Shown: positions 4,719 through 64,000 of the stretch, in pieces
Position numbering within the stretch: the first letter of the stretch is position 1
Layout: every line of letters starts with the position of its first letter
IMG/VR virus record: IMGVR_UViG_3300020442_000509
Location: 5,802 to 69,801 of that record
Origin: a virus
Length of the DNA stretch: 64,000 nt
Strand: one strand, 5' to 3'
Notes under the pieces: generated by a model
What the model was told of the DNA's origin: nothing
The model's database searches: none
The model's input: only the letters and a program-made list of their open reading frames with translations
Position numbers and translations under genes: made by a program

Positions 4719-4726
4719 TATTTATA
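4719..4726 (-). promoter_or_regulatory. T4-type late promoter TATAAATA
   Basis: Exact gp55 consensus 20 nt upstream of the 4698 ATG. Confidence 0.8.
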
Positions 4727-14305: not shown

Positions 14306-14602
14306 TTATTTATCGTTCTTCTCAACTAGAAGCTTTACAAGTTCTTTTAGTTCACTGATCTCTGATTTGAGATCTTGGTTTTCAACTCTGCTGAGACGAG
14401 CTTGTTCACGCGCCTTAATATATGCCTCATAAGCAGCCTTGTCGGTGTTTATGATGGCATTACTATTAGGGTCTCTCCCGAGGTTGGGATGATCTTCTAC
14501 TTTAATTAATCCCTTCGAGTCTCTAGGATCGTCTTCTCCTTTGTCACGTCGAGCGAGAATTTCTCTTTCTCGCTCTAAAGCAATTTTTTCAAAATCTTCC
14601 AT
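14306..14602 (-). CDS. Conserved hypothetical protein (98 aa)
   Basis: Coupled to the VrlC-like gene; KVEDHPNLGRD..AIINTD motif, C-terminal coiled coil. Confidence 0.75.
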   Translation of the reverse strand: MEDFEKIALEREREILARRDKGEDDPRDSKGLIKVEDHPNLGRDPNSNAIINTDKAAYEAYIKAREQARLSRVENQDLKSEISELKELVKLLVEKNDK

Positions 14603-25800: not shown

Positions 25801-28800
25801 CGATGGTTTGCGTGAATCCATGAGAACCACCAATCGTGATTGTCTGATTATTGATCGCCTGGGTCATCAAAGATTCCATCTGGGCGATAGTGGCAAGAGT
25901 TTCTTGCTCTTCACCGTCGATACGAGTTGTACCTACGTAATAGGTGTCTGTAATATCGTATACTTCATTATTAGCACCATGAAGGATGTTGAACGAGATC
26001 TTGTCGATCAAATCCAACATATCACTTACATAAGCGGCATTGTTACCACCGAAGTTAGGATAGTCAACTGTAGTCATCAAATGGACAGCTTCGTTTGCCA
26101 GAAGTTGTCTATTTGCCTGGAGGGTATTGTAAGCATCAAAGTGTCTGCTGCTCTGAACCTCAAATGGGATGTCGAGCATCATGCGCTCAACAGACTCGTT
26201 AGCAATCAAGTTAGTGTTGCCAGTTATCAAAGTGGCAGCATCAGCAAATCTGTTTGCTACTGGTGTACCAAAACGGTTCATCAGACCAACCGCAATATCA
26301 GCAATGATAGATGCGTTGTTGTTGATCAGAACTCTTGCGTCACCGAAGCGGTCAGCGCTGACATGACTTGCGGTGTCAAGAACATCTGTAATAACAATAT
26401 CAGCAGTAGCACCTGTACCAGTGTTACCACGCTTATTGACAAGATTGACACCATTGTAGGTTCCAGCTGTATATCCACTACCCTGGTAGATACCGTCTGT
26501 GGTATTCAGAGATGAGATAACATCACCGAAGATGTCAAGCTGGAAGTTACTAGAGATATCGGAACGTTTGAAGAAGATAATGTTACCAACAGAGTTCTCT
26601 AGAGGTGCCTCAGTAAATGTAATCGTGCTTCCAGAAACACTGTAGGAGACAGGGTTTTGGACGATTCCATTGATGGTAACCATCAACTGATTCTTATTAG
26701 TAGGTGTGACAGCAGCACCTCTGTATCTCATCTGGAAATCAGTGGTCTCGCCGTCAAACTTCACTCTCAGAGTGTGCTCACTAGCAGTGGACACTCCAGT
26801 AAGTGGCACTGCTGTACCACCAACAGCATTAGCTTTTGTGCTAGCAAGTTTGATCTGATTGTCATTAACGCGAATAACGTAGTAATCAGTTCCAGCGTCC
26901 AGACCAGCAATAGGTGTAGACTCAGCAATCTCAGGATAATAACCAGGGTTACGCTCAGGGATGCTAGAAGGATTATCGATACCACCCCAGACAATCTGAG
27001 AAAGGGTATCAATAGTTGACTTGACATCAGCACATCCACCGAGATCTACAGTAATAGTGATGTCTGTGAATGGAAGCTGGTTGACAATCGCTTGCTTAGC
27101 GAGATCTCTAGCATACTGGATGGCATAGATGGTCTCTGCTTCTTCACCGCCAACGTGATAAACGTTGTTGACAGGTTCAGTTCTAGTAACCGCAGAAAGT
27201 GTTCCGCTGTTGATTGCGGTTGTCATGATATTGACCAGAGTAGTCAAAGAAGAAACTACGTTCTGGCAGGAGTAGATATAACCACCAGTCTTTTCAGTTC
27301 TTGATACGTTCTGATGATTGATAGGATCAGTGATTGCGTTAGTAACAATCGCCATCAAAGTAGTGATAGCATTTACCTGATCAGCACACTTGACATAGTT
27401 TGGTTGATCGGGAGGTGCGGTGTCGTCAGTAATCGTCAGATCTTTGACCTGACCAACCATGTCAGAAACATCCTTGTTCTGAATTACCAGAATAGCGATG
27501 TCTCTTGCTTGCTCGAACATGTATTCAAGCTCGCCTTCTTCTCCCTGTGCGTAACTACCAGTTACATAGAAGTTAGCACCATCCCAGGTATCATCGTTAC
27601 CACCGCCAGAAACGTTGGCAGCAATATCTTCTACAGTCTCAACAACTTTAGACTCGTAACTAGACTGAGACTGAGCAAAAGTATGTGAGGGATATTGATT
27701 GACCATTCTGGTGTATGCTGTAGCAGCAATCTGATTCTTATTAGAATTCAGAAGGTTCATAGCATCAGCAGAACGATCGCTGACATATCCAGCTGGATCG
27801 GCAGTAATTGTCAGATCTTTGACCTGAGTTCTAGCAGTATAGTTTGTTGGGATATCATAGTTCTGGAGAGCATATGTACAATACGTCAAAGCGTATCCCA
27901 TCATCTCCGCAGATTGGGTATCTGCTCCAGCAAGTTGGATGGTGTTAGCGATATAGTCTCTACCTTGATCCCAAGACTCGCTATTTCCACCATATGCCAT
28001 GTTATAAGCAAGAGCTTCAATAACATCAACCAAATCATCAATAGCGACTTGGTTGCCACCAGGAATAGCAAATGCCTGGTTAGAAGTTTGTGCCAGCATA
28101 GCACCAACTGCTTCTTCAGCAATCAGTTGCTTGTTTTGGAGGATCAGGTTACGGGCATCACCGAAACGAGTACCAACCAATCCAACACCACCGATGTAAG
28201 TGTCTACAGCATCCCAGGAGAATGCGTTACCACCAAAGCGGAGGTCATTACACCAGGCAACGACAATCAGTCTCAGGTCACGAGCACAGGTCGATCTGTC
28301 ATAATCAGGGGTAGTACCATCAGTCAGCGTAGGATATTGTGTCTCCAGAGCTTGAACAGTTTGATCAATGATGTAATCAATGTTGCCAAGGATCAGGTTT
28401 CTAGCATCCTGGAATCTATCAGCAGGAGCAGCGTATTTTACTTTCTGACCAGTGATGAATCCATGGTTTGTAAGATTAAGAGCATCGTTAGCAACATCAA
28501 CAACGTTGCTGTCAGAACCATCTAAGGTAACAGTTCTATCTTCAATCTTGTCAAATTTCTCAACGATAGCAGTAAGAATCTTTCTAACGTCCAGAAGTTG
28601 CTTACCACTGACCAAAACGTTCGTAGGAACGGCAGCAGTATAATCTGGTTTGCCCAGAACAAAGTTTTCAATCTTAGAAAGCTTACCTACGTTAGAAGCA
28701 GAAGGTTTCGGTGTAAAGAATGTCGTTCCATTGAATGACTGATTCTCATCACCAAATCTCTCTTCATACCAGGTGTTAGGATCTGGGTTTGATGGGTTGT

Positions 28801-31800
28801 TGAAAGATCTACGACGATATCTCTTGAAGGCAGATTGGGATACAACTTGGTTACCAAATACTTTGAAACCAGCAGGGTGAGCAGAACTCTTGATCTGATT
28901 CTTCCACTGTCTAATATTAATAGGAGAATCAATAACGTAAGAGAACTCCTGATACTTGTCAGAGTCGTAAATACGCTGTTCATTAAGATCAAGGATACCA
29001 GTGGTTCTCTTGAACTCAGCAGTAGCAGTAGCGATAGGAGATACTTTGAATGTAGCAAGTGCTCTCTCAAAGTCATGGATCTCACCAAACGCTTTGGTCT
29101 GTAGACCGAAGACAGGTTGACCCTTGGCAAACTCACCCTGAGATGCTTCTACAGAGAGAATTCTACCCTTAGGATCCCAATACTTAACTTCACCGATAGC
29201 AGAGAACGAATCAGTAGATGTACCTTGATACAGTTTCTCGCCAACCGAGAATGTACCAGGAATCATGGTAACAGTAATCTGATCACCAAGATCTGTGGTC
29301 TCTAGTACAAATGTTGAGGTTCCATTGCTACCCAGGGTGGCAGGACCAGTAAATGTGACAAAGATATTGTCAACAGCGTTTGTGTTGGTTGTAGCAAGTC
29401 TAATTTGGTTACTACCCAGACCATTTTGAATACTAGCAGCAATAGCATAGTAAACAATGTCAGGTTGGAGAGGTGTAGGCAGATTACCATCAAGCTCTCT
29501 CAGAACAACCTTAGTTCCAGTAGGAATCTTTGTATTGTATGGGAAGTTCAGTGTGCTGTTAGATGTCAGTCCAACAAAGGAGTGAGTGATCTTTGCCTGT
29601 ACAGCAGGAGTAGAAGAATAACCCTTACCTGGGTTAATAACTTCAATAGCTTGGATAACTTCGTTATCAATGATGGGTTTCAAGACAGCACCAGAACCAC
29701 CACCACCGATTAGTTCGATAGTAGGAGTGGTAACGAAAGAATTTCCACCATTAGTGACTGTGAAGAAATCCACAATCTGAGTTCTCGTGAGCTGGAGGTT
29801 GTATGTTGTATTAACCTCGGGTTTGAGGGTACGGTCATGAGAATAGTTGTATGTAATATTGTCACCACCAAGACCGATGATGGTTCCAAGGTTCTCAGAC
29901 TTGAGAAGTACAGATCCACCTTCACCAGTGCCTTGCTGAATAGAGATGATTGGTGCGTTCTGGAACTTACTACCAGCATTCTCGATGACGATTTGAGATA
30001 CAGTCTCATCAACGATTTCTGCTCTCAATACAGCATTGAGACCAGTACCACCAGAGATTTTTACATCAGGAGCTGAGAGGTAACCAGATCCAGCGTTAGT
30101 GAGATTGATAGCATCGATAGATGCGTTGATTGTAGTAGAAGTAATCGCAGGACGTACAGGAACGATTGATGTAATGGTTACAGTAAAGTCATCTGTGCCA
30201 TCTCCACCACCAGTGATCTGAGCACCTGAAATCGTAATGATATCACCAAGAGCATATGTAGTGCCACCATTGGTTACGGTAACACTAGATACATCCAAAG
30301 TAGAAGCGTCGATAACAACAGTAAACTCAACATCAGTACCTCCAGTAGGAGCAACAGACTTTTGTGTTACATTGTTGTATGTGCCAGCTACAAAATTGGC
30401 AGAGGAGTTCTGACTTGTGATACTAACTGTTCCAACACCACCATAGTATGGATCATCGATGTAGATGAGTGGTGCCTTTCTGTAGTTGCTACCACCACTG
30501 TTAATAGCGATGTTAGAGATTGTGCCCAGTTCAGGACCAGTAGCAGGGACAATAGCAGCAACAGCAGCTTGCTGTCCGCTTACAGCGGTAATAGTTGCTT
30601 GGTTAGGACCAGTGAATACTTTGTTGCGAAGAGCATTTGCCGCATTGAACATGATGAAACCACGAGTGGTAGCACCAGTCAGATTGTTACGAAGAGGTTC
30701 TACTCTTAGCGTAGAGGTATTAGCATTCCAAGAAATCACTTTACCGCGAGCAGAGTCTCCACCAAGAACTCGCTCAGAGGTAACAATGTCACCTCTAGAG
30801 AATGTACCAAATACTTGATCAAGTGTCAGGTCAACGAAATCAGGCATCGAGCAGATAACCTGAGGTAGTTGAGCAGGATTGTAACCAGTTCCATTCTCAA
30901 GAATAGCAACATCCTCTAGGAAACCAGAGATAGTTGCTGTAGCTTCCGCACCAGCACCAGATCTTTCAATGCCAGTGAACTGAGGCAGAGTAGAATAGTT
31001 TCTACCAGAGTCACCAATATTGATAGAAGCAATACCACCACTAGGATAGATTGAACTTGTAGAGTATGAAACTTCTGCGCTAGCACCATAAGCACAGTCA
31101 GGTTCTCTAGGGAGAATGAATGAGATATCGTTCTGAGTGACACTGGTAACAGTATTACTACCGATATAAGGATCTTGTATGACAGAGAGGTAGTTGCCCT
31201 GAACAGTTCCGTTGATATCGAAGTAGAACAGTGTTCCAGGGATATCTTTGACTTCTACAGTGATTGAACGCTGTTGACCAGTTACAGTGTCATTAGTAGT
31301 GTCAACAATGTTCTTGTAGGTGAAGATGTTAGTATTCTCAGCGTCAAAGGTAAACTCAAGTCTCTTTCCATCATTAGAAGTATCTTCAGTCTTAAACTTG
31401 TACTTGTGACCGTTGATCAGATCGAGTTTGGGTTCTCTGTTATAGACTTGCGTAGAAGTGATAACACCAGTGCTGACAATATTCTGTACAGCTTTTTCAA
31501 ATTGGAATCTTCTACCAGTAGATGTGCCTGTGACAGTATGCGTACCGTCATAGTCAGCAGGAGTTGTGCCAGAAACAACTACAACATCACCAGTAGTAAG
31601 TTGGTGAGCAGCAGTCCCTCTGAGCGTAAATTCTTGAATAATCTTGTTTGGAGTGATATAGAAACCACTACCATTACCAATATCACTATTTGTAGCAGTT
31701 AGTTGTTCTCCAACTACGTAACCACTACCAGGATTTGTGACAGTAACTTCGCTAACTTCACCGCTAGAGTTGACAACGATAGTAAACAGAGCACCCTCAC

Positions 31801-34800
31801 CTGATGATACACCAGAGTTGAACAGGGGTACGTTAGTGTAGGTACCTTCAGTATATCCAGATCCAGCAAAGAGTGTCCAATCATTTTGACTGATTTTACC
31901 AGTCTTCAGTACGACACCAATATCCATTTGGAATCCAGTTCCAGTTCCACCAATCTGAGAGGCGGAAGCGGTCAGAACATCTCCATCTTTATAGTTCTTT
32001 CCTTGACTTACGATAGTTACACCAGTAACTTCGTTACCACTTACAATGATATTAGCAGTCGCAGCAGTACCACTACCACCAGACAGTGCTACACCATTAT
32101 ATGTTCCATTGGTATAGTTCTCACCAGCAGTGATGGTTAGGTTTGCCTGGAGAACTCGACCAGGACTACTTACAATGAAGCTACTGACATCATAGTATTT
32201 GAAGTGATACTTGTTGTCAATGATCTTGACGTCAATATCTCTTTGGTTCTCATTGTTGCCAATGAAAACATCAACAAACTCTTCAGGTTTGATATAGTGG
32301 GTGTCTGCTGCTCCGATAGTCGCAGTAATTACATCAGTGTCAGGATTTACGGCGAAGTTTAGGGTATTGACATCTACGCCAGTAATTCTAGAGATACGCG
32401 CAGAAATACCACTACCACCAGTAGACTCTTCTGTGAATACCAGTCTGTCATTTACCTTATATCCTCTACCAGCACCTTCAATCAGGTATTGGTTGACACC
32501 TTCACTAAAATATCTGTTAGTAGCAGATACAAACAGAGAATCTGTAGATCCACCACGGATGGATGGGAAGTAATCGTAGTATCCGATACCAACGTCTACA
32601 AAACCAATGAAGTTACCACCAGTGTCCTGTTCTAGGACGATAGGTGTTGTAGCGTCTTCCAGAGCAAGAATATAATTAACGGGGTCCCCCAGATCCTTAC
32701 GTCTGACAACAGCGCCATCAGTGAATACGTACGGAGCCTTGTATCGAACCGCGTCCTCGCTGAATCTTGATTGAAGTCCATTTCCGTTCCAGTTGATATT
32801 GTCCGCTTGACTGTAGAAGTCAGGTCCAATAAAGTATGGGAACTTGGGATTACCTGTGGTACCATCTAGAGTACAGAAATAAGCGTATACACCTTCGGGA
32901 TACTCAGGTGTGACGCAGAAGCGTCCATTGTACTTATCAAGGTCGCCAAGACCCTCTACGTACTCAAAGTCTTCAATATATGTACCCATGGTGTCAGTGA
33001 GACCTGTTACCAGAGAATCACGACCAGAACGGATTCTATAGCTCGAAGTCATCTGCTTGAGCTGGTTGAATGGGTTTCTGTTCTGTTTATCTACGTAAGC
33101 ATAAGGTCCATAGATGGGATGTCCATCATATGCCCAACCGAGGATAGGAGAGTGTCTCGTGGGGTTGAGTTCTCCATATGAATCATTTACGTTGTCACCC
33201 AGCAAGAATCTAAGAATCTTGGGGTTGTACATATATCCATACTCACCACCATAGATTGAGAAGTTAGCGCCTGTCATAGAGACGCCATTGCCTTCATCAG
33301 CAATTTTGGGGGAAGTATAGCTTAGGGGGTCAACTCCAAGTTCATCAGCAGTCGCTGCCTTGTTAATAGTAAGTTGAGGCAGTTCTACTTGGAATCTAGC
33401 GCCAGCACCAGGATATACGATGTCTACAAAGGTTTTACCTGATGTATAACCAGCACCACCATTAGTTACATTAATAGAGGTAACTTGCTGAGAACTACTA
33501 TCAATCTGAGCAAACGCAACAGCACCAACGCCATCACCTGTAATTACAACGTCAGGAGGTCCATAGTAGTTGGTACCACCGTAAGTCAGGATAATAGAAA
33601 CGATTCTACCGTTGACAATACTAGGATAAGCAACAGCGCCGCTACCAGAGATAAGAGTAATGTTCGGGCGTTCATCATACCTAGTACCAGCATTAGTGAT
33701 AGTAATTCCATCTTCAGTCAAACCACCACGGACAACTGCCTGAGCAGTTGCTCCAGTTCCGCCACCACCAGTAATTGTTACTGTAGGAACACTATCGTAT
33801 CCACTACCTTCAGCAGTGACTGTAATTGACGTAACTCTACCAGAAGTGATCGTTGCTGTCGCAGCAGCTTGAATAGTGGGGTTACCACCTGAAATAGCAA
33901 CAGTAGGAGCGGTAGTATAGTCTTGACCGCCGTTAGTAACGTTAACTGAGAATACTCGACCAGAAACACTAACTGTCGCCTGTGCTGAGACGCCTTCAAA
34001 GTCCCAGAGACACTGACCATCCTGTACAGCATTTCCGCTGCTGTGAGTGGGTTCTGTGCCCCTCTGAGCGCTCTTACCGCTTCCTAGGTTCTTATATCTT
34101 TGTCCAGAGCTATTACGGACTCTTTGACCCAAGAAGTAGTTTGTATCTGGTTTCCAGAGCGGTTCAAACTCAACGATAGGTGGATTAGTAATATCGTAAC
34201 CATCACCTGCGTCAACAACAGAAATACTCTTAACACCACCAAATAACTTAGTGTCTTCAGACTTATATGAGAAAAACGGGACGCCATTAGTACCGATACC
34301 GATTTGACCGACTGGAGTCGCCTGTTTTGTCGATTTGGTCTTGGTAGTGCGAGGAATACGCTTCAGATAGCGTTGGTTGCCAGGATCAAGGTCATCAGCA
34401 CCAAATGGACCAATTTTGTGACCTGGGATGCCAGGAGACGCAACAATACAGTGATCATCCGTTCTGTATGTGTTTTGAACGTCAGAAGGCGTCTGTTGGA
34501 CTTTTAGGCGAATTGATGTGTCGTCAGAAGTCGCTTTTGCGAATTCACGAGTAATAAGGAACTGTTGTCCACTAACACCTTGATTTGGAGTTACTGGAAT
34601 CTGGATATCGAAGACTTTGGCGGAGCTAACACCAACAACAGCAAATTCGGAGTTGTAGACGTCTTCTGGTGCGTTTAGAATGCGAATCGTGTCAGCACGC
34701 TTCAATCCATGGTTTTCAGTTGTAGTTACGGTCGCAATAACTCTACCTTGAGCGTCTGGAGACGAAAGAGTCAGTTGGGAACCAGTAAGTAGCTTTTTAG

Positions 34801-36190
34801 TGTTGTAAATGAAGGATGGCCAGATAGATTCGTTAGAATCAAATCCAGGAGCGGCAGGAGTCGTAACTTTCGAGTCCTGAATGTAATACTTACCACCATC
34901 GGTTAGTTCAATGCCTCTGGTGCCACCAAACACCTTCAGAGTGATCTTACTACCATCTCTGTTGGAATATCCGAAGATCTCGAAGGCAGAGATGACTTCA
35001 GAACCAGCAATGTGACTTGATACTGTAGTATTGTCTCTAGCGCGAGTACAACCTAAGAATTGGTTGACAGTTTTGTCTGTATAGGTAAGAACCTCAGAAC
35101 CAATACGGATTTTGCCATCTAACTCAGGCCAACCGAGTGTAGAGTCAACAGTGACGATATCTTCGTCTAATCTGTCGCCAATGTCTTCTGACAGAGTTGT
35201 TTTGTATGGTGTGGCAAATGTACCTTGACCATTTTCAGTATCTACGTCCAATTCGTAGATTTTGCCGTCTTCAGTGAAAACCTCGACAACAGTTTTGACG
35301 TAAATGCGTGCGTCGTTAACTAGAGGGTCTGTAGGGTCGTTTGCCTGGTACAGAACCTGTCCAGTAAGCTCTACAGGGTTACCATCTAGAGCGTCAGCTC
35401 TAATAACCTCTCTGACACTGTAGAATGCGTCAGATGGTTTGAAAATTCTATCTTTAGGATATCTTACTTCAGATTCGATGCCATACAGCACTCTCATCAG
35501 ATATTGGAAAGATCTGGAGGTACCTTTAGCGGCATAGAAGTCTTTCAGTCTTTTTGTGACCGAAGACTGTTTGATTCTACTGTCAAACGCAGTTGGGAAT
35601 GCTTCTGCGAACTGATCGCGGAATCTGCCGAGCATAAACAGCGGCAGAAGGTTATTCAGGTTGACACACTCATCCCCAAAGGAATGAGCAGCTGCTACAG
35701 AGTCAGAAAACGTATATTCGCCCAAAGTGCCAATTTTGGTCGTAGCATGGAAGCCTCTGACGCAATGTTGGAGTTGGGTTGAGTTTTTTGACTTATAATA
35801 GATGATCTCATCGTTGATCATCGCCAGACCTTCCTTCGGGAAGTCTCTGGTGTTCACAACGTCGATAGTTGTCGCATCAATCGCTACAGCAGACGATACA
35901 GTCGTCTTTTCGACCAGATCGTTCAGTTTGTCAATATTATAGTAGTCATCAAAGTTGTTGACGACATCCATGGGTCCACCACGGAGTTCAGCAGACTTAA
36001 AGTACAGTTTGAGGAACTCTACAAAGTCTGGGTAGTCTTCTCTGACGAATTGAGGTAGTTGCTCCTCAATCCTTTCTGAAATTTTAGTTCTACTCTCGGG
36101 AGAGACGCTAGAATCTGTTGGGTCTACTGCCACCTGGGTAGGTGGAGTTACCCAAGAGGATATTCTCCAAGAAGACTGCTCAATCGGCAT
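22883..36190 (-). CDS. gp7: Baseplate wedge initiator gp7-like giant protein (4435 aa)
   Basis: Between gp6 and gp8; QLPQFVREDYPDFVEFLKLYF, KDFYAAKGT..F..L, YQEFSYVI..HPAGFKVFG; extended by YHYH-like, GSGY and helical repeats. Confidence 0.85.
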   Translation of the reverse strand: MPIEQSSWRISSWVTPPTQVAVDPTDSSVSPESRTKISERIEEQLPQFVREDYPDFVEFLKLYFKSAELRGGPMDVVNNFDDYYNIDKLNDLVEKTTVSSAVAIDATTIDVVNTRDFPKEGLAMINDEIIYYKSKNSTQLQHCVRGFHATTKIGTLGEYTFSDSVAAAHSFGDECVNLNNLLPLFMLGRFRDQFAEAFPTAFDSRIKQSSVTKRLKDFYAAKGTSRSFQYLMRVLYGIESEVRYPKDRIFKPSDAFYSVREVIRADALDGNPVELTGQVLYQANDPTDPLVNDARIYVKTVVEVFTEDGKIYELDVDTENGQGTFATPYKTTLSEDIGDRLDEDIVTVDSTLGWPELDGKIRIGSEVLTYTDKTVNQFLGCTRARDNTTVSSHIAGSEVISAFEIFGYSNRDGSKITLKVFGGTRGIELTDGGKYYIQDSKVTTPAAPGFDSNESIWPSFIYNTKKLLTGSQLTLSSPDAQGRVIATVTTTENHGLKRADTIRILNAPEDVYNSEFAVVGVSSAKVFDIQIPVTPNQGVSGQQFLITREFAKATSDDTSIRLKVQQTPSDVQNTYRTDDHCIVASPGIPGHKIGPFGADDLDPGNQRYLKRIPRTTKTKSTKQATPVGQIGIGTNGVPFFSYKSEDTKLFGGVKSISVVDAGDGYDITNPPIVEFEPLWKPDTNYFLGQRVRNSSGQRYKNLGSGKSAQRGTEPTHSSGNAVQDGQCLWDFEGVSAQATVSVSGRVFSVNVTNGGQDYTTAPTVAISGGNPTIQAAATATITSGRVTSITVTAEGSGYDSVPTVTITGGGGTGATAQAVVRGGLTEDGITITNAGTRYDERPNITLISGSGAVAYPSIVNGRIVSIILTYGGTNYYGPPDVVITGDGVGAVAFAQIDSSSQQVTSINVTNGGAGYTSGKTFVDIVYPGAGARFQVELPQLTINKAATADELGVDPLSYTSPKIADEGNGVSMTGANFSIYGGEYGYMYNPKILRFLLGDNVNDSYGELNPTRHSPILGWAYDGHPIYGPYAYVDKQNRNPFNQLKQMTSSYRIRSGRDSLVTGLTDTMGTYIEDFEYVEGLGDLDKYNGRFCVTPEYPEGVYAYFCTLDGTTGNPKFPYFIGPDFYSQADNINWNGNGLQSRFSEDAVRYKAPYVFTDGAVVRRKDLGDPVNYILALEDATTPIVLEQDTGGNFIGFVDVGIGYYDYFPSIRGGSTDSLFVSATNRYFSEGVNQYLIEGAGRGYKVNDRLVFTEESTGGSGISARISRITGVDVNTLNFAVNPDTDVITATIGAADTHYIKPEEFVDVFIGNNENQRDIDVKIIDNKYHFKYYDVSSFIVSSPGRVLQANLTITAGENYTNGTYNGVALSGGSGTAATANIIVSGNEVTGVTIVSQGKNYKDGDVLTASASQIGGTGTGFQMDIGVVLKTGKISQNDWTLFAGSGYTEGTYTNVPLFNSGVSSGEGALFTIVVNSSGEVSEVTVTNPGSGYVVGEQLTATNSDIGNGSGFYITPNKIIQEFTLRGTAAHQLTTGDVVVVSGTTPADYDGTHTVTGTSTGRRFQFEKAVQNIVSTGVITSTQVYNREPKLDLINGHKYKFKTEDTSNDGKRLEFTFDAENTNIFTYKNIVDTTNDTVTGQQRSITVEVKDIPGTLFYFDINGTVQGNYLSVIQDPYIGSNTVTSVTQNDISFILPREPDCAYGASAEVSYSTSSIYPSGGIASINIGDSGRNYSTLPQFTGIERSGAGAEATATISGFLEDVAILENGTGYNPAQLPQVICSMPDFVDLTLDQVFGTFSRGDIVTSERVLGGDSARGKVISWNANTSTLRVEPLRNNLTGATTRGFIMFNAANALRNKVFTGPNQATITAVSGQQAAVAAIVPATGPELGTISNIAINSGGSNYRKAPLIYIDDPYYGGVGTVSITSQNSSANFVAGTYNNVTQKSVAPTGGTDVEFTVVIDASTLDVSSVTVTNGGTTYALGDIITISGAQITGGGDGTDDFTVTITSIVPVRPAITSTTINASIDAINLTNAGSGYLSAPDVKISGGTGLNAVLRAEIVDETVSQIVIENAGSKFQNAPIISIQQGTGEGGSVLLKSENLGTIIGLGGDNITYNYSHDRTLKPEVNTTYNLQLTRTQIVDFFTVTNGGNSFVTTPTIELIGGGGSGAVLKPIIDNEVIQAIEVINPGKGYSSTPAVQAKITHSFVGLTSNSTLNFPYNTKIPTGTKVVLRELDGNLPTPLQPDIVYYAIAASIQNGLGSNQIRLATTNTNAVDNIFVTFTGPATLGSNGTSTFVLETTDLGDQITVTMIPGTFSVGEKLYQGTSTDSFSAIGEVKYWDPKGRILSVEASQGEFAKGQPVFGLQTKAFGEIHDFERALATFKVSPIATATAEFKRTTGILDLNEQRIYDSDKYQEFSYVIDSPINIRQWKNQIKSSAHPAGFKVFGNQVVSQSAFKRYRRRSFNNPSNPDPNTWYEERFGDENQSFNGTTFFTPKPSASNVGKLSKIENFVLGKPDYTAAVPTNVLVSGKQLLDVRKILTAIVEKFDKIEDRTVTLDGSDSNVVDVANDALNLTNHGFITGQKVKYAAPADRFQDARNLILGNIDYIIDQTVQALETQYPTLTDGTTPDYDRSTCARDLRLIVVAWCNDLRFGGNAFSWDAVDTYIGGVGLVGTRFGDARNLILQNKQLIAEEAVGAMLAQTSNQAFAIPGGNQVAIDDLVDVIEALAYNMAYGGNSESWDQGRDYIANTIQLAGADTQSAEMMGYALTYCTYALQNYDIPTNYTARTQVKDLTITADPAGYVSDRSADAMNLLNSNKNQIAATAYTRMVNQYPSHTFAQSQSSYESKVVETVEDIAANVSGGGNDDTWDGANFYVTGSYAQGEEGELEYMFEQARDIAILVIQNKDVSDMVGQVKDLTITDDTAPPDQPNYVKCADQVNAITTLMAIVTNAITDPINHQNVSRTEKTGGYIYSCQNVVSSLTTLVNIMTTAINSGTLSAVTRTEPVNNVYHVGGEEAETIYAIQYARDLAKQAIVNQLPFTDITITVDLGGCADVKSTIDTLSQIVWGGIDNPSSIPERNPGYYPEIAESTPIAGLDAGTDYYVIRVNDNQIKLASTKANAVGGTAVPLTGVSTASEHTLRVKFDGETTDFQMRYRGAAVTPTNKNQLMVTINGIVQNPVSYSVSGSTITFTEAPLENSVGNIIFFKRSDISSNFQLDIFGDVISSLNTTDGIYQGSGYTAGTYNGVNLVNKRGNTGTGATADIVITDVLDTASHVSADRFGDARVLINNNASIIADIAVGLMNRFGTPVANRFADAATLITGNTNLIANESVERMMLDIPFEVQSSRHFDAYNTLQANRQLLANEAVHLMTTVDYPNFGGNNAAYVSDMLDLIDKISFNILHGANNEVYDITDTYYVGTTRIDGEEQETLATIAQMESLMTQAINNQTITIGGSHGFTQTIDSGITTVTGGCTNVISAMTTLIDIIETGINTDLMNHAVRTEPAAFTVPGGNVNCIDDVKDVMTALAINTKFGSNSEIYDAAAYYVNTVHLDGEEIHAKYVYREATKIAKQVINNTSVTIRGSHGITQVTDSGITSVGGGCTNVESAIDTLMNIIEVAIDTDSLSTFTRTAPTPFLSPGIGDDQCKSDTIDILRSVGVNTAFGGNHILWETLDMYFNGGHVQGEEAETQYVLEEARAMVLKAINNETFETYPDYNLTSRSQYKDPSITTVSGGCTNVVSAIDTLMDLAYAVIGQGNFNSYTRTVGQCGDGYESAPTITISGGSPTTDGDITAVLSREGFIKSIGITQAGAGYTNPPTVVIKSNSGFNATATAAVSGGAVTGVTVTYGGFGYEDVVVEIIANPADTITQTCTASAIIGKHLEALEVQKTGVNYGSVPTLAISGGNPSTAASGAIARLTGAVTSVTLQNGGSGYLNTDMLGVDPSTVGGTVKNSFQVEVGTVTFDGVQTQFAAKVGGSGYTLPANDRFFLFLNSTIQELGTSYSYTGSPSTITFTEAPLGNMDFYCFYVGQTQGMDTLEPFFDNTRKSFVLKKNEQPFSLESDSTDVIPANNLIIFLNGIYQEPEVSYILNGSILEFAEPPRAGSTCQIFIYTGSNLDIVTEDTYNALDPGDTLKIKSEGDERTLAQIASSTSLDTYEYTGLRPNVAAFTAVVVNGKVIDVIITDAGSNYEVPPVLLFNGGGGSGAFAETVIEAGSGRVIDVINLQGGSNYASAPAVQPFHPVSLERTQRNRVLSNSNFLYTTQLTASINSTDTSISVENAYFNNGQGFPNQGELLIPYWNSSASVWSTERILYSTVDYNSNVFTVTTNGRGNKRTGPSPGVGHAISIENGTYDANGFVVNVNMGGAHYLETGMERYFRFTSFGNAQFASEALDGTYRVTKTGSNTLQFTSPVALNETGQSIQILPTIRVYSLSL

Positions 36191-43582: not shown

Positions 43583-44242
43583 TCAGTTTTCCACAACGTT
43601 TTCCACAATGGGTGCGGAAACTGTGGAATACACATCCAAAACTAGAGAGAATCGTGGTACACTACCATCGTTCCATACCCTGTGTTTCTTCTTACTTCTA
43701 AAGATCATGAAGTCATTTTCCTTGAAGTATCTACGTAGTGCGCGTTTCTCTGTCTCCATAACATCTAAGTACGCACCACCATCTGTCTTGACATTCCAGA
43801 ACACACGATGCTGTATTGTCTGTTCATCTGGATCATCATCCCAATGCCAATCTAGTCCATACTCTGGATCTAGTCTTGTGAATCCACAGTAATGAGTATG
43901 ACCAATGAACTCCAGTATCTTACATGTCTTAGGCATCTGTACACTGTTAGGTGTATACCTTTGTCCATTGTATATGAGTGGAGCTAGATGCCATCCTCTG
44001 TCATTAGTTGTTGATGCCTCAGCATACTCTTTCGCTAGTATAGGATACCCTTGTCCATTCTTCTTGATGTACTTGTCTTGATAGTCAGAGAAGTCCTTAT
44101 ACTCTAGTTGAGCATTGTCGAACTCCTCTCTGATGACATCTTGGAATTTGGGTAATACTAGCAGTCTCTTTGTTAGTTGTTCAGGCTTAAGGAATGAGCG
44201 CTCTGTTAGTTGTACCATACTGTGAATAGAGTTTAGCGTCAC
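43583..44242 (-). CDS. Aspartyl/asparaginyl beta-hydroxylase family 2OG-Fe(II) oxygenase (start may be ATG 44218)
   Basis: W.L.PL..G, PKTCKIL, FTRLDP..HWD, HRVWN..PR..LVLDV. Confidence 0.8.
   Translation of the reverse strand: MTLNSIHSMVQLTERSFLKPEQLTKRLLVLPKFQDVIREEFDNAQLEYKDFSDYQDKYIKKNGQGYPILAKEYAEASTTNDRGWHLAPLIYNGQRYTPNSVQMPKTCKILEFIGHTHYCGFTRLDPEYGLDWHWDDDPDEQTIQHRVFWNVKTDGGAYLDVMETEKRALRRYFKENDFMIFRSKKKHRVWNDGSVPRFSLVLDVYSTVSAPIVENVVEN
43587..43630. repeat. Cluster of DnaA-box-like 9-mers
   Basis: TTTTCCACA at 43587 and 43599; inverted GTTTCCGCA (43613) and TATTCCACA (43622). Confidence 0.65.
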
Positions 44243-45474: not shown

Positions 45475-45648
45475 TCAGCAGTGCCCAGCACGTGATGCTA
45501 GACAGTCTGTCAACTGTCTCACAATGTCCCCATCCTTCACTTGGTGTTGCCATGCTAGCTGGCGTGTCATGCGGGCATCAGTGCCCCACAACACATCGAT
45601 CAAGAACTTGATCTGATTCTCAGTTAGATTAACGTCAACCGAACGCAT
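45475..45648 (-). CDS. Hypothetical protein, 57 aa (MRSVDVNLTENQIKFLIDVLW...)
   Basis: Hand-translated; GGAGG upstream. Confidence 0.6.
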   Translation of the reverse strand: MRSVDVNLTENQIKFLIDVLWGTDARMTRQLAWQHQVKDGDIVRQLTDCLASRAGHC

Positions 45649-46330
45649 CTAAGTCACCTCCAGGTCTTGTAGTTTGTTTACCCATCATACCCTGATGATA
45701 TGGTTTTTGTCCAGTGTTTATCTTCGCATCACCATGATTGTGCTTTGTCATCCATCCCAGTGGCGTGTTGTCCAAGTCTACGGTGACATTGAACGATGCT
45801 ACCGTACGCTTGACATCACTCAGGTTAGGTTGAGTATAGTGGAGCACAAATGATGGGAACAGGATAAGATCACCTTCCTTCACCTCTGGCATGTAACACA
45901 GTTGCATACCTGTGATGAAATGATTGAATGGTGAGACAAATACTGTGCTGGTGTGAACACTAGGATCATACTCAATGTAGAGCACAGCACTCCATCCACC
46001 ATGACCATGAGTATGGATTGGATGGTACATCTTATTGTACGCTCGTTCAAACCATGTACGCACAATTACAGGATCACAGCCTAGATCTCGCGCAAACTGT
46101 CGCATCTCATCCTTCACCAGACCACGCACAGTCTCCAGATACTTTGACTGTGGATTGTACAGGTCTAGTTGTTCATCAGGTGTCTTCTCATAACTGTAGT
46201 CAGAGTACACACATTCTTCACCTAGCTCGAGCACTTGCTGCTCCAGTAGATCAAGAAATCCTTTCTTCTTTTGTTCCCAGTTGGAGAGAGAATACTTCAC
46301 AACTGGGATGCTGAACATAGTTTCAATCAT
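45635..46330 (-). CDS. 2OG-Fe(II) oxygenase, TIGR02466-like (start revised to MIETMFSIP)
   Basis: HPIHTH..WSAVLYI..EGDLILFPSFVLHYT..R..ASFN. Confidence 0.85.
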   Translation of the reverse strand: MIETMFSIPVVKYSLSNWEQKKKGFLDLLEQQVLELGEECVYSDYSYEKTPDEQLDLYNPQSKYLETVRGLVKDEMRQFARDLGCDPVIVRTWFERAYNKMYHPIHTHGHGGWSAVLYIEYDPSVHTSTVFVSPFNHFITGMQLCYMPEVKEGDLILFPSFVLHYTQPNLSDVKRTVASFNVTVDLDNTPLGWMTKHNHGDAKINTGQKPYHQGMMGKQTTRPGGDLDAFG

Positions 46331-46364
46331 GCTCTGAGACCCCTCTAGAATCGCCTGTAACGTG

Positions 46365-47603
46365 TCAGACCCAGCTGGTTGCTGGCATACCCTTGGTGAA
46401 CACACAATCGACCACACGCTGGAGTCGGTTGCTGATCTGACGCCCTGTGTTCTGATAGACAGGGACAGTCACGAAACCTGTGGGTTTGATGTAATTAGCA
46501 TAGCATGTCGGGCGGAGCGCACCACTGCTGATACGTTGCGCGTCCTGACGATCAAGGCGGATCACACGACCAATAGTCTGCGCCATCTCGATCACAGGAA
46601 GCTGACGCAGCAGGATCACGTGCGTCAGACCAGGGACATTGATACCCTCACTGAGGATAGAATAGTGGAACAACACGAAATTCTTGTTCGGATCAAGACC
46701 CCAGGCGTGGAGAGTGTTGAAGAACTCGTCACGTGTTACCTTCTTACCGTCAATAATAGCACCATCCTTGGATGTAATGCTCATGACACTATAACCACGC
46801 TCGTAGAGATCCGCGAGCACAAGACTGTTAGCGAACATGTGCTTAATGATACGCGCACTAGGAGCAGCAACCAACACTTTCTGAGCAACATTGTCATCGA
46901 GACTGTCAACAACAGTGGTCACAGTGTTAGCATCAGTCAGTGCTACTGTCTCTTTCTTGCGCTCATAGGGCAGTTCAGTCACCTTGACAGTGGGAGGGAT
47001 GATAGAACCACACTCGATAAGCTCCTGAGCAGCAACAGTGATCAGGTTGTTACCATAGATCTGAGCATTGTTCATGCCACGCTTACCATTCTTGGCAAAC
47101 TTAGGTGTGGCAGTGAAGAAGAATGCGCGGTCAGCATCAACAGCAGCAAGAGCAACAACAGGGAAGAAGTTGCGTTGTACACTGTTGTGCGCTTCGTCAC
47201 AGTACAGAGCGTTGATCTTGATACCAGCGTCAACAATACGGTGGAGAGAGTTGTATGTGCTGAAGATAATCACATGCTCATTGACATGGTGACACATACG
47301 AGTGAACAGATTGATGCGATCAGACTTGGTAGTCTTGAAGTGCTTAGTCTCACCACTGTGAACATGGAGGACATTGGCATTCTTGACCTGCTCCATGAAC
47401 TCTTCACAGAGTTGAATGGCAAGCATGATGCGGGGAGCAACAACAACAATAGTCTGTGGCTCTGTAGCAGTGTCAAGGTGGTTGATCACATCGTTGATCA
47501 TACACAGAGTCTTGCCACCACCAGTGGGGATGTACACGGTGCCACGCTCGTTAGAGCGGAGGGCATCGACTGTGCGTTGCTGGTGGGGGCGGAGGGAATA
47601 CAT
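46365..47603 (-). CDS. SF2 DEAH helicase (type III Res-like), 412 aa
   Basis: LRPHQ, PTGGGKT, DEAH, TATP, LSEGINVP, QTIGRVIR. Confidence 0.9.
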   Translation of the reverse strand: MYSLRPHQQRTVDALRSNERGTVYIPTGGGKTLCMINDVINHLDTATEPQTIVVVAPRIMLAIQLCEEFMEQVKNANVLHVHSGETKHFKTTKSDRINLFTRMCHHVNEHVIIFSTYNSLHRIVDAGIKINALYCDEAHNSVQRNFFPVVALAAVDADRAFFFTATPKFAKNGKRGMNNAQIYGNNLITVAAQELIECGSIIPPTVKVTELPYERKKETVALTDANTVTTVVDSLDDNVAQKVLVAAPSARIIKHMFANSLVLADLYERGYSVMSITSKDGAIIDGKKVTRDEFFNTLHAWGLDPNKNFVLFHYSILSEGINVPGLTHVILLRQLPVIEMAQTIGRVIRLDRQDAQRISSGALRPTCYANYIKPTGFVTVPVYQNTGRQISNRLQRVVDCVFTKGMPATSWV

Positions 47604-61852: not shown

Positions 61853-62273
61853 CTTTTTTCTTGAAGACGAAAGCACCATGAGTGCTGCCCCACACCTGCT
61901 TACCACTATTGTCAAACCCTTGATCTAAGACGATGTATTCGTCAGACTTGAGTACACATTCCGAACGAAGATATCCACCATTGACAAACGGTGCTTCAAA
62001 GGTTCTGCCGTAGAAGTTTCCCGCTTCGTCTCTAAAGAAATGGAGATCAGCAACAGGGTTGCGGCAGACAAGTCCGTCATCAGTTTCCTCTACAGTAATA
62101 TCTTTGGTGCGGTACACTTCCATGTTGTGCTTATACTTCTGCTCACAATGGAACGTATAAGGACCAGTTCTCTTATGTTCTAAAAGAATGTAGGCGAACC
62201 AACTTGGCCAAGACGATGCTTGCTGCCAGTTGTCATATTCACCTTCAAACCAGTCACAAAATTCGTCAATCAT
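61848..62273 (-). CDS. cpeT: CpeT/CpcT-like phycobilin lyase (auxiliary metabolic gene)
   Basis: FEGEYDNWQQA..P..FAYI, DQGFD..GKQVWGS.HGAFVFKK. Confidence 0.88.
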   Translation of the reverse strand: MIDEFCDWFEGEYDNWQQASSWPSWFAYILLEHKRTGPYTFHCEQKYKHNMEVYRTKDITVEETDDGLVCRNPVADLHFFRDEAGNFYGRTFEAPFVNGGYLRSECVLKSDEYIVLDQGFDNSGKQVWGSTHGAFVFKKKV

Positions 62274-62839
62274 AGCAGTTTAATATTAGCACCAATGGAG
62301 ATCCTATCCTCATCTGAGGCATTACGATCCACTCTATGTCTCAAGTCAGCAGGGAATACCAACAATGACCATGGTTTAGGATAAAACCATGTGGAGTCAT
62401 AGAAGTTTAGTTTTTCTTTGTCTTCGGGTGTAGTACATTCGAGCAGCTTGTATCTAGTAAGCGCACTGTCATTCTCAAAGATAAAATTTCCGCAGTTGGT
62501 TGGAGATTGTAACCACATGACAGCAGAGAGATCAACACCCAAGTGCTGATGACCGATATTGTACTCCCCAGGGCTATTAACAGAAGCCCACATTGAAACA
62601 ACTTCAAATTGTGAGGGTGTAAGTTCTGCGATGCTTGTCGCTAGTTCTGAGTAGAACCAGAGAAAGAAGATGGTAAAGTCTTCATTTCTATGTAGATCAT
62701 AAGGACTATGCCAACCACAACTGGACGATGCCGAGTCATGATCTGCCGTCTTTCTATATTCTTTTATCCAATCCAGTAGTTTAGGATGCTCTAGGCATTC
62801 TCTATACACTACTGGAGAGGGGAACAAGCTTATTCGCAT
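62270..62839 (-). CDS. 2OG-Fe(II) oxygenase, TIGR02466-like
   Basis: MWASVN.PGEYN..HQH..LSAVMW..FPADLRHRV..N..DRISI. Confidence 0.88.
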   Translation of the reverse strand: MRISLFPSPVVYRECLEHPKLLDWIKEYRKTADHDSASSSCGWHSPYDLHRNEDFTIFFLWFYSELATSIAELTPSQFEVVSMWASVNSPGEYNIGHQHLGVDLSAVMWLQSPTNCGNFIFENDSALTRYKLLECTTPEDKEKLNFYDSTWFYPKPWSLLVFPADLRHRVDRNASDEDRISIGANIKLL

Positions 62840-63015
62840 CCGTCTTTTTTGAACCGTTTACGACACTTTTTTACTTCTTTCATCTCCTCTTTGATCATCT
62901 GATACGCATCTTCCGCCTTGATTCTACCACCAAGTTCCATGGCACAGATGATCTCAACACGAGTGCCGAAATGTTTCAGTGCTTCCTCAAAACAGTTTAG
63001 TTCTTCGTACATCAA
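62830..63015 (-). CDS. Conserved hypothetical protein (61 aa)
   Basis: FGTRVEIICAMELGGRI..EDAYQMIK. Confidence 0.75.
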   Translation of the reverse strand: MMYEELNCFEEALKHFGTRVEIICAMELGGRIKAEDAYQMIKEEMKEVKKCRKRFKKDGCE

Positions 63016-63272
63016 TACCTCCCAGGCATTTTAGGAACAGGTACACCCCATTTTTCAGTCAATTCTTTATCATAGAACCGTTCACCCAACATCAGAGCTT
63101 TAAGTTCTTCTGCTTTTTTCATATTACAAGCATGATAAGCAATCCAGGAGTCTACTTCTGCCAGCATGTCCTCATAGCATTGACGAGCGGTCACTCCCTC
63201 ATCGGTGAGATAATCAGTGATGGATTCAGAGAGACGGTCACGACGTTGCTCTTCATAAGTCTTGGTGTTCAT
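63012..63272 (-). CDS. Hypothetical protein (86 aa; start revised to MNTKTY)
   Basis: TGCTATACT extended -10 upstream. Confidence 0.7.
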   Translation of the reverse strand: MNTKTYEEQRRDRLSESITDYLTDEGVTARQCYEDMLAEVDSWIAYHACNMKKAEELKALMLGERFYDKELTEKWGVPVPKMPGRY

Positions 63273-63305
63273 AGGATTCAACAACCACTGAACCAGTATA
63301 GCATT

Positions 63306-63331
63306 AAAAAAGGGGACTCGCAAGTCCCCTT
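63306..63331 (-). terminator. Intrinsic terminator
   Basis: AAGGGGACT-TGCG-AGTCCCC followed by T6. Confidence 0.88.
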
Positions 63332-63347
63332 CGCACTTCCTTCACAC
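63306..63347 (-). ncRNA. Candidate ~42-nt late sRNA with a Yfr1-complementary 5' end
   Basis: CTAAATA (63352-63358), then GTGTGAAGGAAGT, then terminator; no ORF in between. Confidence 0.4.
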
Positions 63348-63354
63348 GCTGTAT

Positions 63355-63726
63355 TTAGTTACCAGAGTAAAGGATCTTTTGTACCACACCTTCCACGATG
63401 TTCACGTTCGCGACAGGTGTTGGGGCATAGTGTGTTTTCCACACAGCAGGATAAACTTCAATTTGCTTGGTGATGGTGAATGGGGCAATGCGACCATGGT
63501 TCCCGTTCTTACAGATCTTGAATCTCCCCAGATCCTCAAAATCATGTGTACCAGAATAATCAATGCTCCAGATTCTTCCATTGGGATCGATCCAATATTC
63601 TGCTAGGGATCTGTACAAGTCTTCTGTTCTAAGTTCTCTGTTCCAGAATCCTGGTCCGAGGTCGAAGGTTGAGAAGATTGTGTCGTATATACCCATGTAC
63701 CCTGTGGTGGTGTTAGCTGTGGCCAT
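63355..63726 (-). CDS. Conserved hypothetical protein (123 aa; may start at MGIYDT)
   Basis: MGIYDTI..LRTEDL..EYWIDPNGRIW. Confidence 0.75.
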   Translation of the reverse strand: MATANTTTGYMGIYDTIFSTFDLGPGFWNRELRTEDLYRSLAEYWIDPNGRIWSIDYSGTHDFEDLGRFKICKNGNHGRIAPFTITKQIEVYPAVWKTHYAPTPVANVNIVEGVVQKILYSGN

Positions 63727-63799
63727 GTGAGTGAATGGATTTCACTCATTTTATAACATTTTTCTTTCATGTGTGCCAGTCTTCATGAAATATTTAGAA

Positions 63800-63873
63800 A
63801 GCCAAAAGACGGACTTGAACCGACGACCTGAGCTTTACAAAAACCCTGCTCTATCCAACTGAGCTATTTTGGC
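63800..63873 (-). tRNA. trnT: tRNA-Thr(UGU), CCA not encoded
   Basis: Cloverleaf: GCCAAAA/TTTTGGC acceptor, GCTC/GAGC D arm, loop TT-TGT-AA, GTTCAAGT T loop. Confidence 0.93.
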
Positions 63874-63998
63874 AGTTTAGATGCTAATTTATAGTATCTC
63901 TTCTTCATTTGTTCGAGAGTTTCCATGTCTTCCTTGAATCCCATGTACTTGAGGAGTTGGTATGACCCCTCAAGTTCACTGATCAAACGAAGTACGGT
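63864..63998 (-). CDS. 3' end of a hypothetical protein entering from the right edge
   Basis: ..VLRLISELEGSYQLLKYMGFKEDMETLEQMKKRYYKLASKLPK*. Confidence 0.6.
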   Translation of the reverse strand, partial: TVLRLISELEGSYQLLKYMGFKEDMETLEQMKKRYYKLASKLPK

Positions 63999-64000
63999 GA

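Follow-up and report, generated by a model that had tools for sequence, protein, structure and literature searches.

T-box leaders are long cis-acting RNAs that have a Stem I, an antiterminator that contacts the 3' end of a tRNA, and pairing to 3-4 nucleotides (nt) of the anticodon. 3'ETS-leuZ of E. coli is a sponge RNA derived from a tRNA precursor, phage T4 induces cleavage of host tRNA-Leu, and the promoter-early stem-loop (PeSL) cassettes of T4-type phages are repeats that occur in multiple copies per genome and have no conserved single-stranded seed. In cyanobacteria, the host RNA Yfr2 binds Yfr1 and Yfr10 via a 5' motif (PMC6778093), and the Yfr1 motif, 5'-ACUCCUCACAC-3', has been confirmed in print (PMC2190773). 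Here, we analysed a 64,000-nt stretch of viral DNA (the window; positions 5,802 to 69,801 of the IMG/VR record IMGVR_UViG_3300020442_000509, and thus most of a 69.8-kb contig fragment) from a T4-like Synechococcus phage, which carries on its minus strand a compact element made up of a promoter-like box, a 14-nt seed and a terminator hairpin. We propose that a small RNA conserved among cyanophages is encoded here in one of its copies and that its partner is the anticodon arm of host tRNA-Val(CAC), a reading that, judged from the sequences, we give about an even chance of being correct.

An earlier note on this DNA had described the locus as CTAAATA, 4 nt, the seed and a terminator, and this layout is present on the minus strand as judged by sequence and folding (Table 1). 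Within it, GTGTGAAGGAAGT(G) spans 63347-63335(4), minus strand. The hairpin has a free energy of -15.6 kcal/mol (z = -2.3 relative to shuffled sequences) and is followed by U6, as in an intrinsic terminator; a simple terminator scan of the window did not list the hairpin, apparently because the stem takes up part of the T-run, while folding shows it clearly. The box, ACTAAATA, has one mismatch to the cyanophage late-promoter consensus NATAAATA quoted in PMC2984593, and the TAA stop codon (63355-63357) of the upstream 123-amino acid (aa) open reading frame (ORF) sits inside it. Rfam searches of positions 62500-64000 gave no match at the locus with the gathering threshold, nor did they when relaxed to E<=10. 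A scan of the window for the seed at <=2 mismatches gave 3 matches versus 2.45 expected, CTAAATA is not enriched in the window (4 observed versus 6.8 expected), and the contig of this phage contains one copy of the unit. A single occurrence of the seed in one window is within chance; by contrast, its conservation across dozens of divergent phages is far beyond chance.

We defined the unit as the exact 14-mer seed followed by a stable hairpin and a T-run. An exact 14-mer scan of viral contigs gave at least 118 stretches, and a pool of these listed stretches, the loci from a panel of cultured phages and the window contained at least 53 non-redundant units in cyanomyovirus DNA with 44 distinct hairpin sequences. 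The claim of a self-contained non-coding unit is supported and can be generalised to a promoter-seed-terminator unit of ~40-50 nt present in at least 53 copies; similarly, the search pattern suggested in the earlier note, GTGTGA(A)GGA(A)G placed a few nt behind a late box and before a terminator, recovers the unit in many cyanomyoviruses. The pooled units are 39-57 nt long with a mean hairpin energy of -13.4 kcal/mol, and at least 10 of the 14 seed bases are unpaired in 44/44 folded units. In the seed-bearing phages, flanks and hairpins are unrelated to each other while the 14-mer is kept. In a model-guided alignment, which was fitted to the covariance model and includes a few rows that are terminator-only matches, 99.2% of stem cells are paired, 7/8 pairs change on both sides, and the hairpin covariation score is 0.664 versus 0.207 in shuffles (0/500 reach the score) and 0.05-0.17 in slid controls. 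Moreover, in a strain with ~97.5% identity to the window the hairpin (63311-63327) carries 7 substitutions and 1 insertion that rebuild a new 8-bp stem, and the seed is unchanged. Both flanks of the swapped hairpin are conserved in this strain, and the site has the appearance of a hotspot of hairpin turnover.

A promoter-like box precedes the seed in 41/53 units; using patterns of our own, we classified it as an extended -10 (TGnTAnAAT) in 20, a late-type NTAAATA in 17 and a plain -10-like box in 4, with none in the remaining 12. The end of the box lies 7-9 nt upstream of the seed in most units, as do TATAAATA, CATAAATA or CCTAAATA in relatives of the window unit, and transcription is therefore expected to start at about the seed. 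The late expression proposed in the earlier note does not extend to the family as a whole, since 20/53 have an extended -10 box of the sigma-70 type in place of a late box. The unit is too short to code and combines the sequence properties of a trans-acting, seed-type bacterial or phage small RNA, i.e. its own promoter box, an unpaired conserved seed, a terminator and no ORF.

The position of the unit differs between genomes: in most cultured phages it follows a small ORF that lies 3' of gp23, the major capsid gene, and in the lineage of the window it lies past the gene for GC755, the 123-aa protein mentioned above. Among 35 viral contigs with a GC755 relative (57-64% protein identity), 32 have no spacer because the GC755 stop codon overlaps the ATG of the next gene, and the remaining 3/35 carry CGTGTGAAGGAAGTGCGAAGGG followed by a hairpin of a different sequence. 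In S-SM2, the unit adjoins tRNA-Leu/tRNA-Thr. blastn with a 78-nt query matched 209 phage records, of which 158 are Synechococcus phages, 14 are named 'Cyanophage' and 4 are Prochlorococcus phages by organism name; in S-RIM2, Syn19, Syn2 and Syn30 the query matched DNA without annotation 3' of the small ORF that follows the major capsid gene. From these positions, the unit appears to be mobile and fixed in its orientation relative to promoter and terminator. Among 22 cultured cyanomyoviruses, 11 contain the perfect unit with one architecture-bearing copy each, including the model phages Syn9 (at 119421-119465), S-RIM2, Syn19, S-SM1 and S-SSM5; strong full-length matches to the covariance model (27.9-68.7 bits) were confined to the same 11/22 genomes and revealed no further copy. 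Weak full-length matches in Syn9, S-PM2, S-RIM2, S-SM1 and S-ShM2 were rejected as ordinary gene terminators, and one-mismatch seed variants in P-HM1, P-HM2, S-RSM4 and at a second S-SM1 site were attributed to chance, as the promoter/hairpin architecture is missing at these sites. The P-HM seed variant has its complement in 0/151 host genomes. Among the 11 panel phages that lack the motif, a terminator screen of the region behind gp23 detected no variant unit.

We searched five picocyanobacterial host genomes, found through a cyanophage psbA, for the reverse complement of the seed. Each of the five contained exactly one perfect 14/14 site, while ~0.016 per genome are expected by chance, and all five sites lie inside tRNA-Val(CAC) (...GCGCA-CUUCC-UUCACAC-GGAAG...). 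Seed bases 1-14 pair with tRNA positions 38-25, i.e. the anticodon loop, the 5' strand of the anticodon stem, A26 and C25, such that seed bases 3-5 form a GUG codon opposite the CAC anticodon. Sites with one or two mismatches are not common to the hosts, except for tRNA-Val(GAC) with two mismatches. The predicted energy of the 14-mer duplex is -24.8 kcal/mol; in the window, the CG that follows the seed extends the duplex to 16 contiguous base pairs at -31.7 kcal/mol (18-nt duplex). Position 15 is C in 24/53 units and position 16 is G in 20/53, and the conserved block ends where the complementarity to the tRNA ends. On the 5' side, C is present at -1 in 40/53 units and at -2 in 34/53, and these bases would pair with G39 and G40 of the tRNA. 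Moreover, the GGAAG of the seed is identical to tRNA positions 39-43. The anticodon arm of phage Val-UAC reads GUUGC-UUUACAC-GCAAU.

The perfect tRNA site was detected in 86/151 genomes of the host family, in which a reversed-pattern control gave 6 matches, and in 17/121 genomes across the phylum. When the family is split at 2.0 Mb, as counted from the result tables, the site is present in 79/86 genomes >=2.0 Mb versus 7/65 genomes <2.0 Mb, and we infer that the small genomes are Prochlorococcus; in four of them, only Val-GAC and Val-UAC were among the best matches to tRNA-Val(CAC). For the phages, we used the cyanomyovirus set of PMC3037559 (17 genomes given there by accession), whose composition does not depend on the motif; hosts were taken as written in the records. 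The perfect unit is present in 6/11 Synechococcus-isolated and 0/6 Prochlorococcus-isolated phages of this panel (one-sided Fisher ~0.04 by our own arithmetic, the phages not being phylogenetically independent); five further carriers (S-E7, Syn30, ACG-2014a, S-RIM2 and Syn2) came from similarity searches and were left out of this count. GUG makes up 40-53% of Val codons (26-37 per 1000) in the five hosts, as estimated from stop-to-stop frames of >=200 codons, a rough sample that possibly contains spurious frames, versus 10% (7.6 per 1000) in 25 window ORFs; its share in the small genomes is 14%. Altogether, these observations demonstrate the conservation of the sequence, the architecture of the unit, its perfect complementarity to the tRNA and the distributions in hosts and phages.

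Many 14-mer matches without a T-run are found in cyanophage-like contigs with tRNA arrays. Here, the seed is part of a leader, in which a near-consensus TTGACA-17-TATACT promoter is followed by 6-10 nt, the seed, either a short hairpin or a longer spacer that is conserved and looks structured, and then a tRNA. This tRNA is a phage tRNA-Gly(UCC) or tRNA-Leu and starts 22-76 nt past the seed at the loci for which both coordinates are available. Among 32 tRNA-array loci examined, 25 distinct promoter-plus-seed rows were counted, and no other recurrent leader seed was found behind strong promoters. Processing of such a leader precursor by RNase P would release an RNA consisting of the 5' seed and the hairpin.

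Several further features of these contigs were observed. A G+C-rich conserved spacer of ~55 nt (GGGGTTCCGTGCCTGTGAAGGGAAACCTGAGGCTGGGTAAATCCCC type) lies between the seed and tRNA-Gly/tRNA-Leu in L073, L094, L115, L122, L132, L138, L148 and L149; it looks structured and has no Rfam match at the gathering threshold. The spacer of TTGACA...TATACT promoters before the seed contains an operator-like inverted repeat, e.g. GACATAAT-ACTC-ATTATGTC, in L052, L063, L066, L073, L076, L096, L105, L143 and others. The seed-bearing tRNA-array contigs contain wcaG RNA motifs and, in one case, a cyanobacterial-type transfer-messenger RNA, which is permuted (133 bits to RF01851) and adjoins an 11-tRNA array at L051:7332-7639 (-). 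abiF RNA as well as wcaG RNA motifs are found at L066:3583-3619 (-), L052:7968-8061 and L122:5338-5436; RNAs of the abiF/wcaG type have been reported for cyanophage S-CREM1 (PMC9964418).

If the tRNA is the partner, we envisage an RNA of ~40-50 nt that would start at or within ~3 nt of the seed and end at the intrinsic terminator, or, in some phages, at a 3' end made by RNase P cleavage before a phage tRNA. The single-stranded 5' seed would first contact the 7-nt anticodon loop of tRNA-Val(CAC) and would then invade the 5' strand of the anticodon stem, forming 14 base pairs generally and 16 in the window phage; the 3' strand of the stem would be displaced, because the seed contains GGAAG, the sequence of tRNA positions 39-43. 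A duplex of 14-16 base pairs would be incompatible with both recognition by valyl-tRNA synthetase and decoding, leaving the tRNA sequestered or unfolded and perhaps exposed to RNases. The phage would rely on valine tRNAs with U34 or G34, and Val-UAC and Val-GAC would escape. Because GUG is heavily used in the host and rare in the phage, the RNA would depress host translation selectively. More tentatively, and at somewhat less than even chance, we suggest that cyanophages may encode a dedicated 'anti-tRNA' RNA that disables the GUG-specific tRNA-Val(CAC) and shifts translation towards the AT-rich phage in GC-rich Synechococcus.

Several observations, including a variant unit in P-SSM4, weigh against tRNA-Val(CAC) as the partner of a free-standing small RNA. 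We infer the ends of the RNA, its binding to the tRNA in vivo, its timing and its physiological effect. The duplex predictions take in neither tRNA modifications nor bound proteins, pairing requires opening of the anticodon stem and of part of the tRNA core, and the location within the tRNA gene was checked for 5 of the 86 family matches. The perfect site is missing in 7/86 of the larger host genomes, and in one of these, G013, the Val-CAC tRNA deviates at two positions, 26 and 28. On the phage side, 5/11 Synechococcus-isolated panel phages have neither the unit nor anything equivalent downstream of gp23. Furthermore, carriers would be expected to supply a tRNA-Val(UAC) of their own, for which we obtained no support: a BLAST probe for phage tRNA-Val(UAC) matched 3/22 genomes, although it is insensitive and missed the Val-TAC tRNA of Syn9 described in PMC11726456, a paper that also describes tRNA supply as deciding infection of a Synechococcus by Syn9. 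In the window itself, the distance of 4 nt between box and seed is atypical compared to the 7-9 nt in relatives and to the ~6-8 nt by which a T4-type late promoter is expected to precede the start; consequently, a transcription start set by the box could clip the seed. The window RNA may instead be the 3' end of a GC755 mRNA that started at the CTAAATA at 63797, rather than an RNA with its own start, and the prediction for a longer transcript has the seed paired with coding sequence upstream of it. Finally, contigs from RNA libraries (four libraries from one study, seawater) cover 62996-63837 at ~97.5% identity; being assemblies that extend across the entire region and may contain DNA, they show neither transcription nor the strand, level or ends of an RNA, and we attach no meaning to the parts of the stretch that had no cover.

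The variant was detected at P-SSM4 120176-120220 (L335:3285-3345), where a syntenic unit consists of CTAAATA, 8 nt, CGUGUGAA and a long terminator; it was the only variant unit to come up with the covariance model, and variants of this type recur in 19 viral stretches (L376-L394). It keeps GUGUG and AGGAGUG, and its terminator stem absorbs AAGGGGAAGGAGUG, with AGGAGUG predicted to lie inside the stem. The complement of the extended P-SSM4 seed occurs at chance level in 151 host genomes. The idea that the variant tracks a variant Prochlorococcus tRNA was rejected, as the host matches that it predicts remained at chance level.

Yfr1 is the weaker of the two candidate partners. The phage RNA could mimic Yfr2 by pairing with ACUCCUCACAC, which is unpaired in Yfr1 (and Yfr10), and so titrate Yfr1; the earlier note had put forward a Yfr1 sponge on the strength of a pairing with two bulged A's. 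We reproduced this pairing (5+3+4 base pairs, -14.8 kcal/mol in all five hosts), and the precedent of Yfr2, which binds Yfr1/Yfr10 via its 5' motif, adds to its appeal; moreover, cofolding of whole molecules gave a ddG (change in free energy upon pairing) of -13.1 kcal/mol for Yfr1 versus -16.4 kcal/mol for the tRNA, and energy alone therefore does not decide against Yfr1. The 5' ends of host Yfr2 (GUGUGAGGAGUGCGG) and the phage RNA (GUGUGAAGGAAGUGCGA) are also alike and differ by exactly two A's. Host Yfr2, though, holds the perfect Yfr1 complement GUGUGAGGAGUG, whereas the two bulges are invariant in the phage seed, for which the tRNA offers a perfect match of 14-16 nt instead; by comparison of the sequences, it is the two extra A's that spoil the match to Yfr1 and create the match to tRNA-Val(CAC). 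The flanks point the same way: because Yfr1 of the five hosts continues with C, a G at -1 would be required, which is present in only 9/53 units, and the flanking CC suits the tRNA and not Yfr1. So does the distribution, as the unit is missing in 6/6 Prochlorococcus-isolated phages even though Yfr1 (RF01116), found in 118/146 host-family genomes, is present in 42/65 genomes <2.0 Mb. The P-SSM4 variant can be read either way, in that it retains GUGUG and AGGAGUG while the latter is predicted to be buried within the terminator stem. In total, we regard a Yfr1 sponge as improbable. The Yfr1 match looked good because the unpaired motif of Yfr1 resembles the anticodon arm of tRNA-Val(CAC): the two are near-identical bar two U's (ACUCCUCACAC versus ACUUCCUUCACAC; L258:1475-1530, which is Yfr1 of G001, versus L268:1466-1537), and in RCC307 CGCAC precedes both.

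Explanations that involve no pairing with a host RNA, or that act in cis or at the level of DNA, are unlikely even when taken jointly, although they hold an appreciable share of the probability. The largest part of this share belongs to a conserved RNA element that acts via a protein or in cis, e.g. a 5'-leader or 3'-end stability element, a site for an RNase or chaperone (ANGGA-like purine motif) or a promoter-proximal signal, with a coincidental match to the tRNA. The seed is always at the very start of the predicted transcript and beside the hairpin, it is purine-rich and Shine-Dalgarno-like, and in the window it could be the 3' untranslated region of GC755. By our own arithmetic, though, the chance of a perfect 14-mer complement in ~3 kb of host tRNA sequence is ~1e-5; the conserved block stops exactly where complementarity to the tRNA stops, and downstream there is no gene to regulate, but a terminator and then a separate promoter. 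We therefore consider this explanation unlikely. A cis-acting sensor, in which tRNA-Val(CAC) bound to the nascent seed would modulate read-through of the terminator as in a T-box, would account for the GUG codon in the seed, its pairing with the anticodon and its distance of 0-6 nt from the terminator stem. This is quite improbable, as a second contact to the acceptor end of the tRNA and an alternative antiterminator are both missing, genes further downstream as a rule come with a promoter box of their own, and the tRNA-leader form has no terminator at all. The least probable explanation, to which we give very little weight, is that the unit acts at the level of DNA, either as an att-like core for recombination in common with the host tRNA-Val gene or as a PeSL-like, mobile terminator-promoter cassette with a conserved block that would serve recombination. 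Phages commonly share sequence with tRNA genes at their attachment sites, the unit lies at differing genome positions and at breakpoints of gene content, and the window terminator shares part of its sequence with a sigma-70-like promoter. Against this, the shared stretch is only 14-16 nt and stems from the anticodon arm, namely its 5' half; with a single copy of the unit per genome, recombination would lack a second repeat; the orientation to promoter and terminator is fixed; no integrase was found among the genes examined; and the carriers in culture are lytic, T4-like phages. The anti-Shine-Dalgarno sequence at the 3' end of 16S rRNA was dismissed as a partner upon inspection by eye, as an internal A/C mismatch would be needed.

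The features of the locus and its surroundings are listed in Table 1.

Table 1. Coordinates of the unit and of neighbouring features in the window
Feature	Position	Strand	Remarks
Whole element (box, seed, terminator)	63306-63358	-	Sequence reading
CTAAATA, late-promoter-like box	63352-63358	-	4 nt 5' of the seed
Spacer CAGC between box and seed	63348-63351	-	
14-nt seed 5'-GUGUGAAGGAAGUG-3' (= GTGTGAAGGAAGTG)	63334-63347	-	Invariant; antisense of tRNA-Val(CAC) 25-38
CG directly 3' of the seed	63332-63333	-	Complementary to tRNA G24 and C23
Terminator hairpin, 10-bp stem, UGCG loop	63309-63332	-	Folding
T6 run of the intrinsic terminator	63306-63311	-	First three T's also paired in the stem
ORF of 123 aa, hypothetical protein 'T4-like GC755', cyanophage-only family	63355-63726	-	Upstream of the unit
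Second CTAAATA box	63791-63797	-	64 nt upstream of the GC755 start codon, next to the tRNA-Thr gene
Phage tRNA-Thr(UGU) gene	63800-63873	-	ARAGORN, Rfam
Sigma-70-like promoter overlapping the terminator	63295-63323	-	-35 TTGCGA in the hairpin loop, 17-nt spacer, extended -10 TGcTATACT
Downstream ORF of 87 aa	63012-63275	-	ATG at 63275

The second CTAAATA box is a possible late promoter, the transcript of which would end at the terminator of the unit. The sigma-70-like promoter would drive the downstream 87-aa ORF, for which no relative was found in viral contigs; the loci L042, L043 and L045 have a matching promoter-terminator layout with TTGACG-17-TGcTATGAT, and the overlap of terminator and promoter suggests a compact cassette. 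We rejected the possibility that the unit is a tRNA gene or pseudogene on the opposite strand, as ARAGORN and Rfam gave only the tRNA-Thr gene (63800-63873) in the window. Elsewhere in the window, the minus strand contains very large ORFs of 4435 aa (22883-36190), 2381 aa (4722-11867) and 2229 aa (14602-21291), presumably for fibre or structural proteins, as well as genes of the 2OG-Fe(II) oxygenase or Asp/Asn hydroxylase type (PF13759, PF05118) at 62270-62839, 45635-46417 and 43583-44242, one of which lies just downstream of the neighbourhood of the unit.

In a literature search, neither this RNA nor any phage RNA that is antisense to a host tRNA was found described, though the former may be present as an unlabelled peak in published data. 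The available text of PMC9964418 lists only RNAs known to Rfam for a tRNA-rich cyanophage, and term searches of the available text of PMC11726456 turned up neither a small RNA nor the Val-CAC tRNA. Thus, even if its partner is not a tRNA, the unit is an apparently undescribed, widespread and strongly conserved cyanophage RNA family. If tRNA-Val(CAC) is its target, it would be without known precedent as an antisense RNA against a mature host tRNA, and real pairing would make it a new weapon in the contest between phage and host over tRNAs and would add a new class of target for small RNAs of the bacterial type, in a setting that comprises the most abundant marine phototroph-virus systems. It would also provide a mechanistic link between the gap in GC content and codon usage of Synechococcus and its phages and the shut-off of the host, as well as a sequence marker for predicting, in uncultured cyanophages, the infection of hosts with tRNA-Val(CAC). 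Because the carriers Syn9, S-RIM2, Syn19, S-SM1 and S-SSM5 have cultured hosts, direct testing is possible.

Of the described systems, the Yfr2 family (Rfam Cyano-1, RF01701) shares with the phage RNA a short single-stranded 5' motif, GUGUGA..GGA..GUG, at the start of the transcript, followed by one or more stem-loops and a terminator; Yfr2 pairs with another stable small RNA, and the phage RNA would do likewise. It differs in that the phage RNA is without the long central stem with its conserved 12-nt loop, does not match the Yfr2/Cyano-1 covariance model, with which host Yfr2 was detected using the same tool, and has a 5' motif that is not a perfect complement of Yfr1 (two bulged A's at -14.8 kcal/mol versus a contiguous match). 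With T-box leaders, the unit would have in common that a specific tRNA is read by codon-anticodon pairing beside a terminator; unlike these, it is ~45 nt long with a single hairpin, would pair over 14-16 nt including the stem, has no antiterminator and is often free-standing, and no Rfam T-box match was found in window positions 62500-64000. The RNA of the tRNA arrays would resemble 3'ETS-leuZ in being processed from a tRNA precursor and acting in trans; here, by contrast, the RNA is a 5' leader and not a 3' spacer, is phage-encoded and has a tRNA rather than small RNAs as its proposed partner. PeSL cassettes similarly combine a stem-loop with an early promoter in a compact intergenic cassette at gene-shuffling junctions, whereas the phage unit is single-copy and its conserved part is the seed. 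Finally, an RNA directed to tRNA-Val(CAC) would fit phage manipulation of tRNA pools by phage tRNA genes, by defences that cleave tRNAs and by counter-defences, in which particular isoacceptors and codon usage are contested and in which Syn9, a carrier of the unit, has been described as critically dependent on tRNA supply (PMC11726456); the known means in this contest are proteins, i.e. nucleases and repair enzymes, or replacement tRNAs, and the phage unit would differ from these in being an antisense RNA, a means not found in the literature searched.

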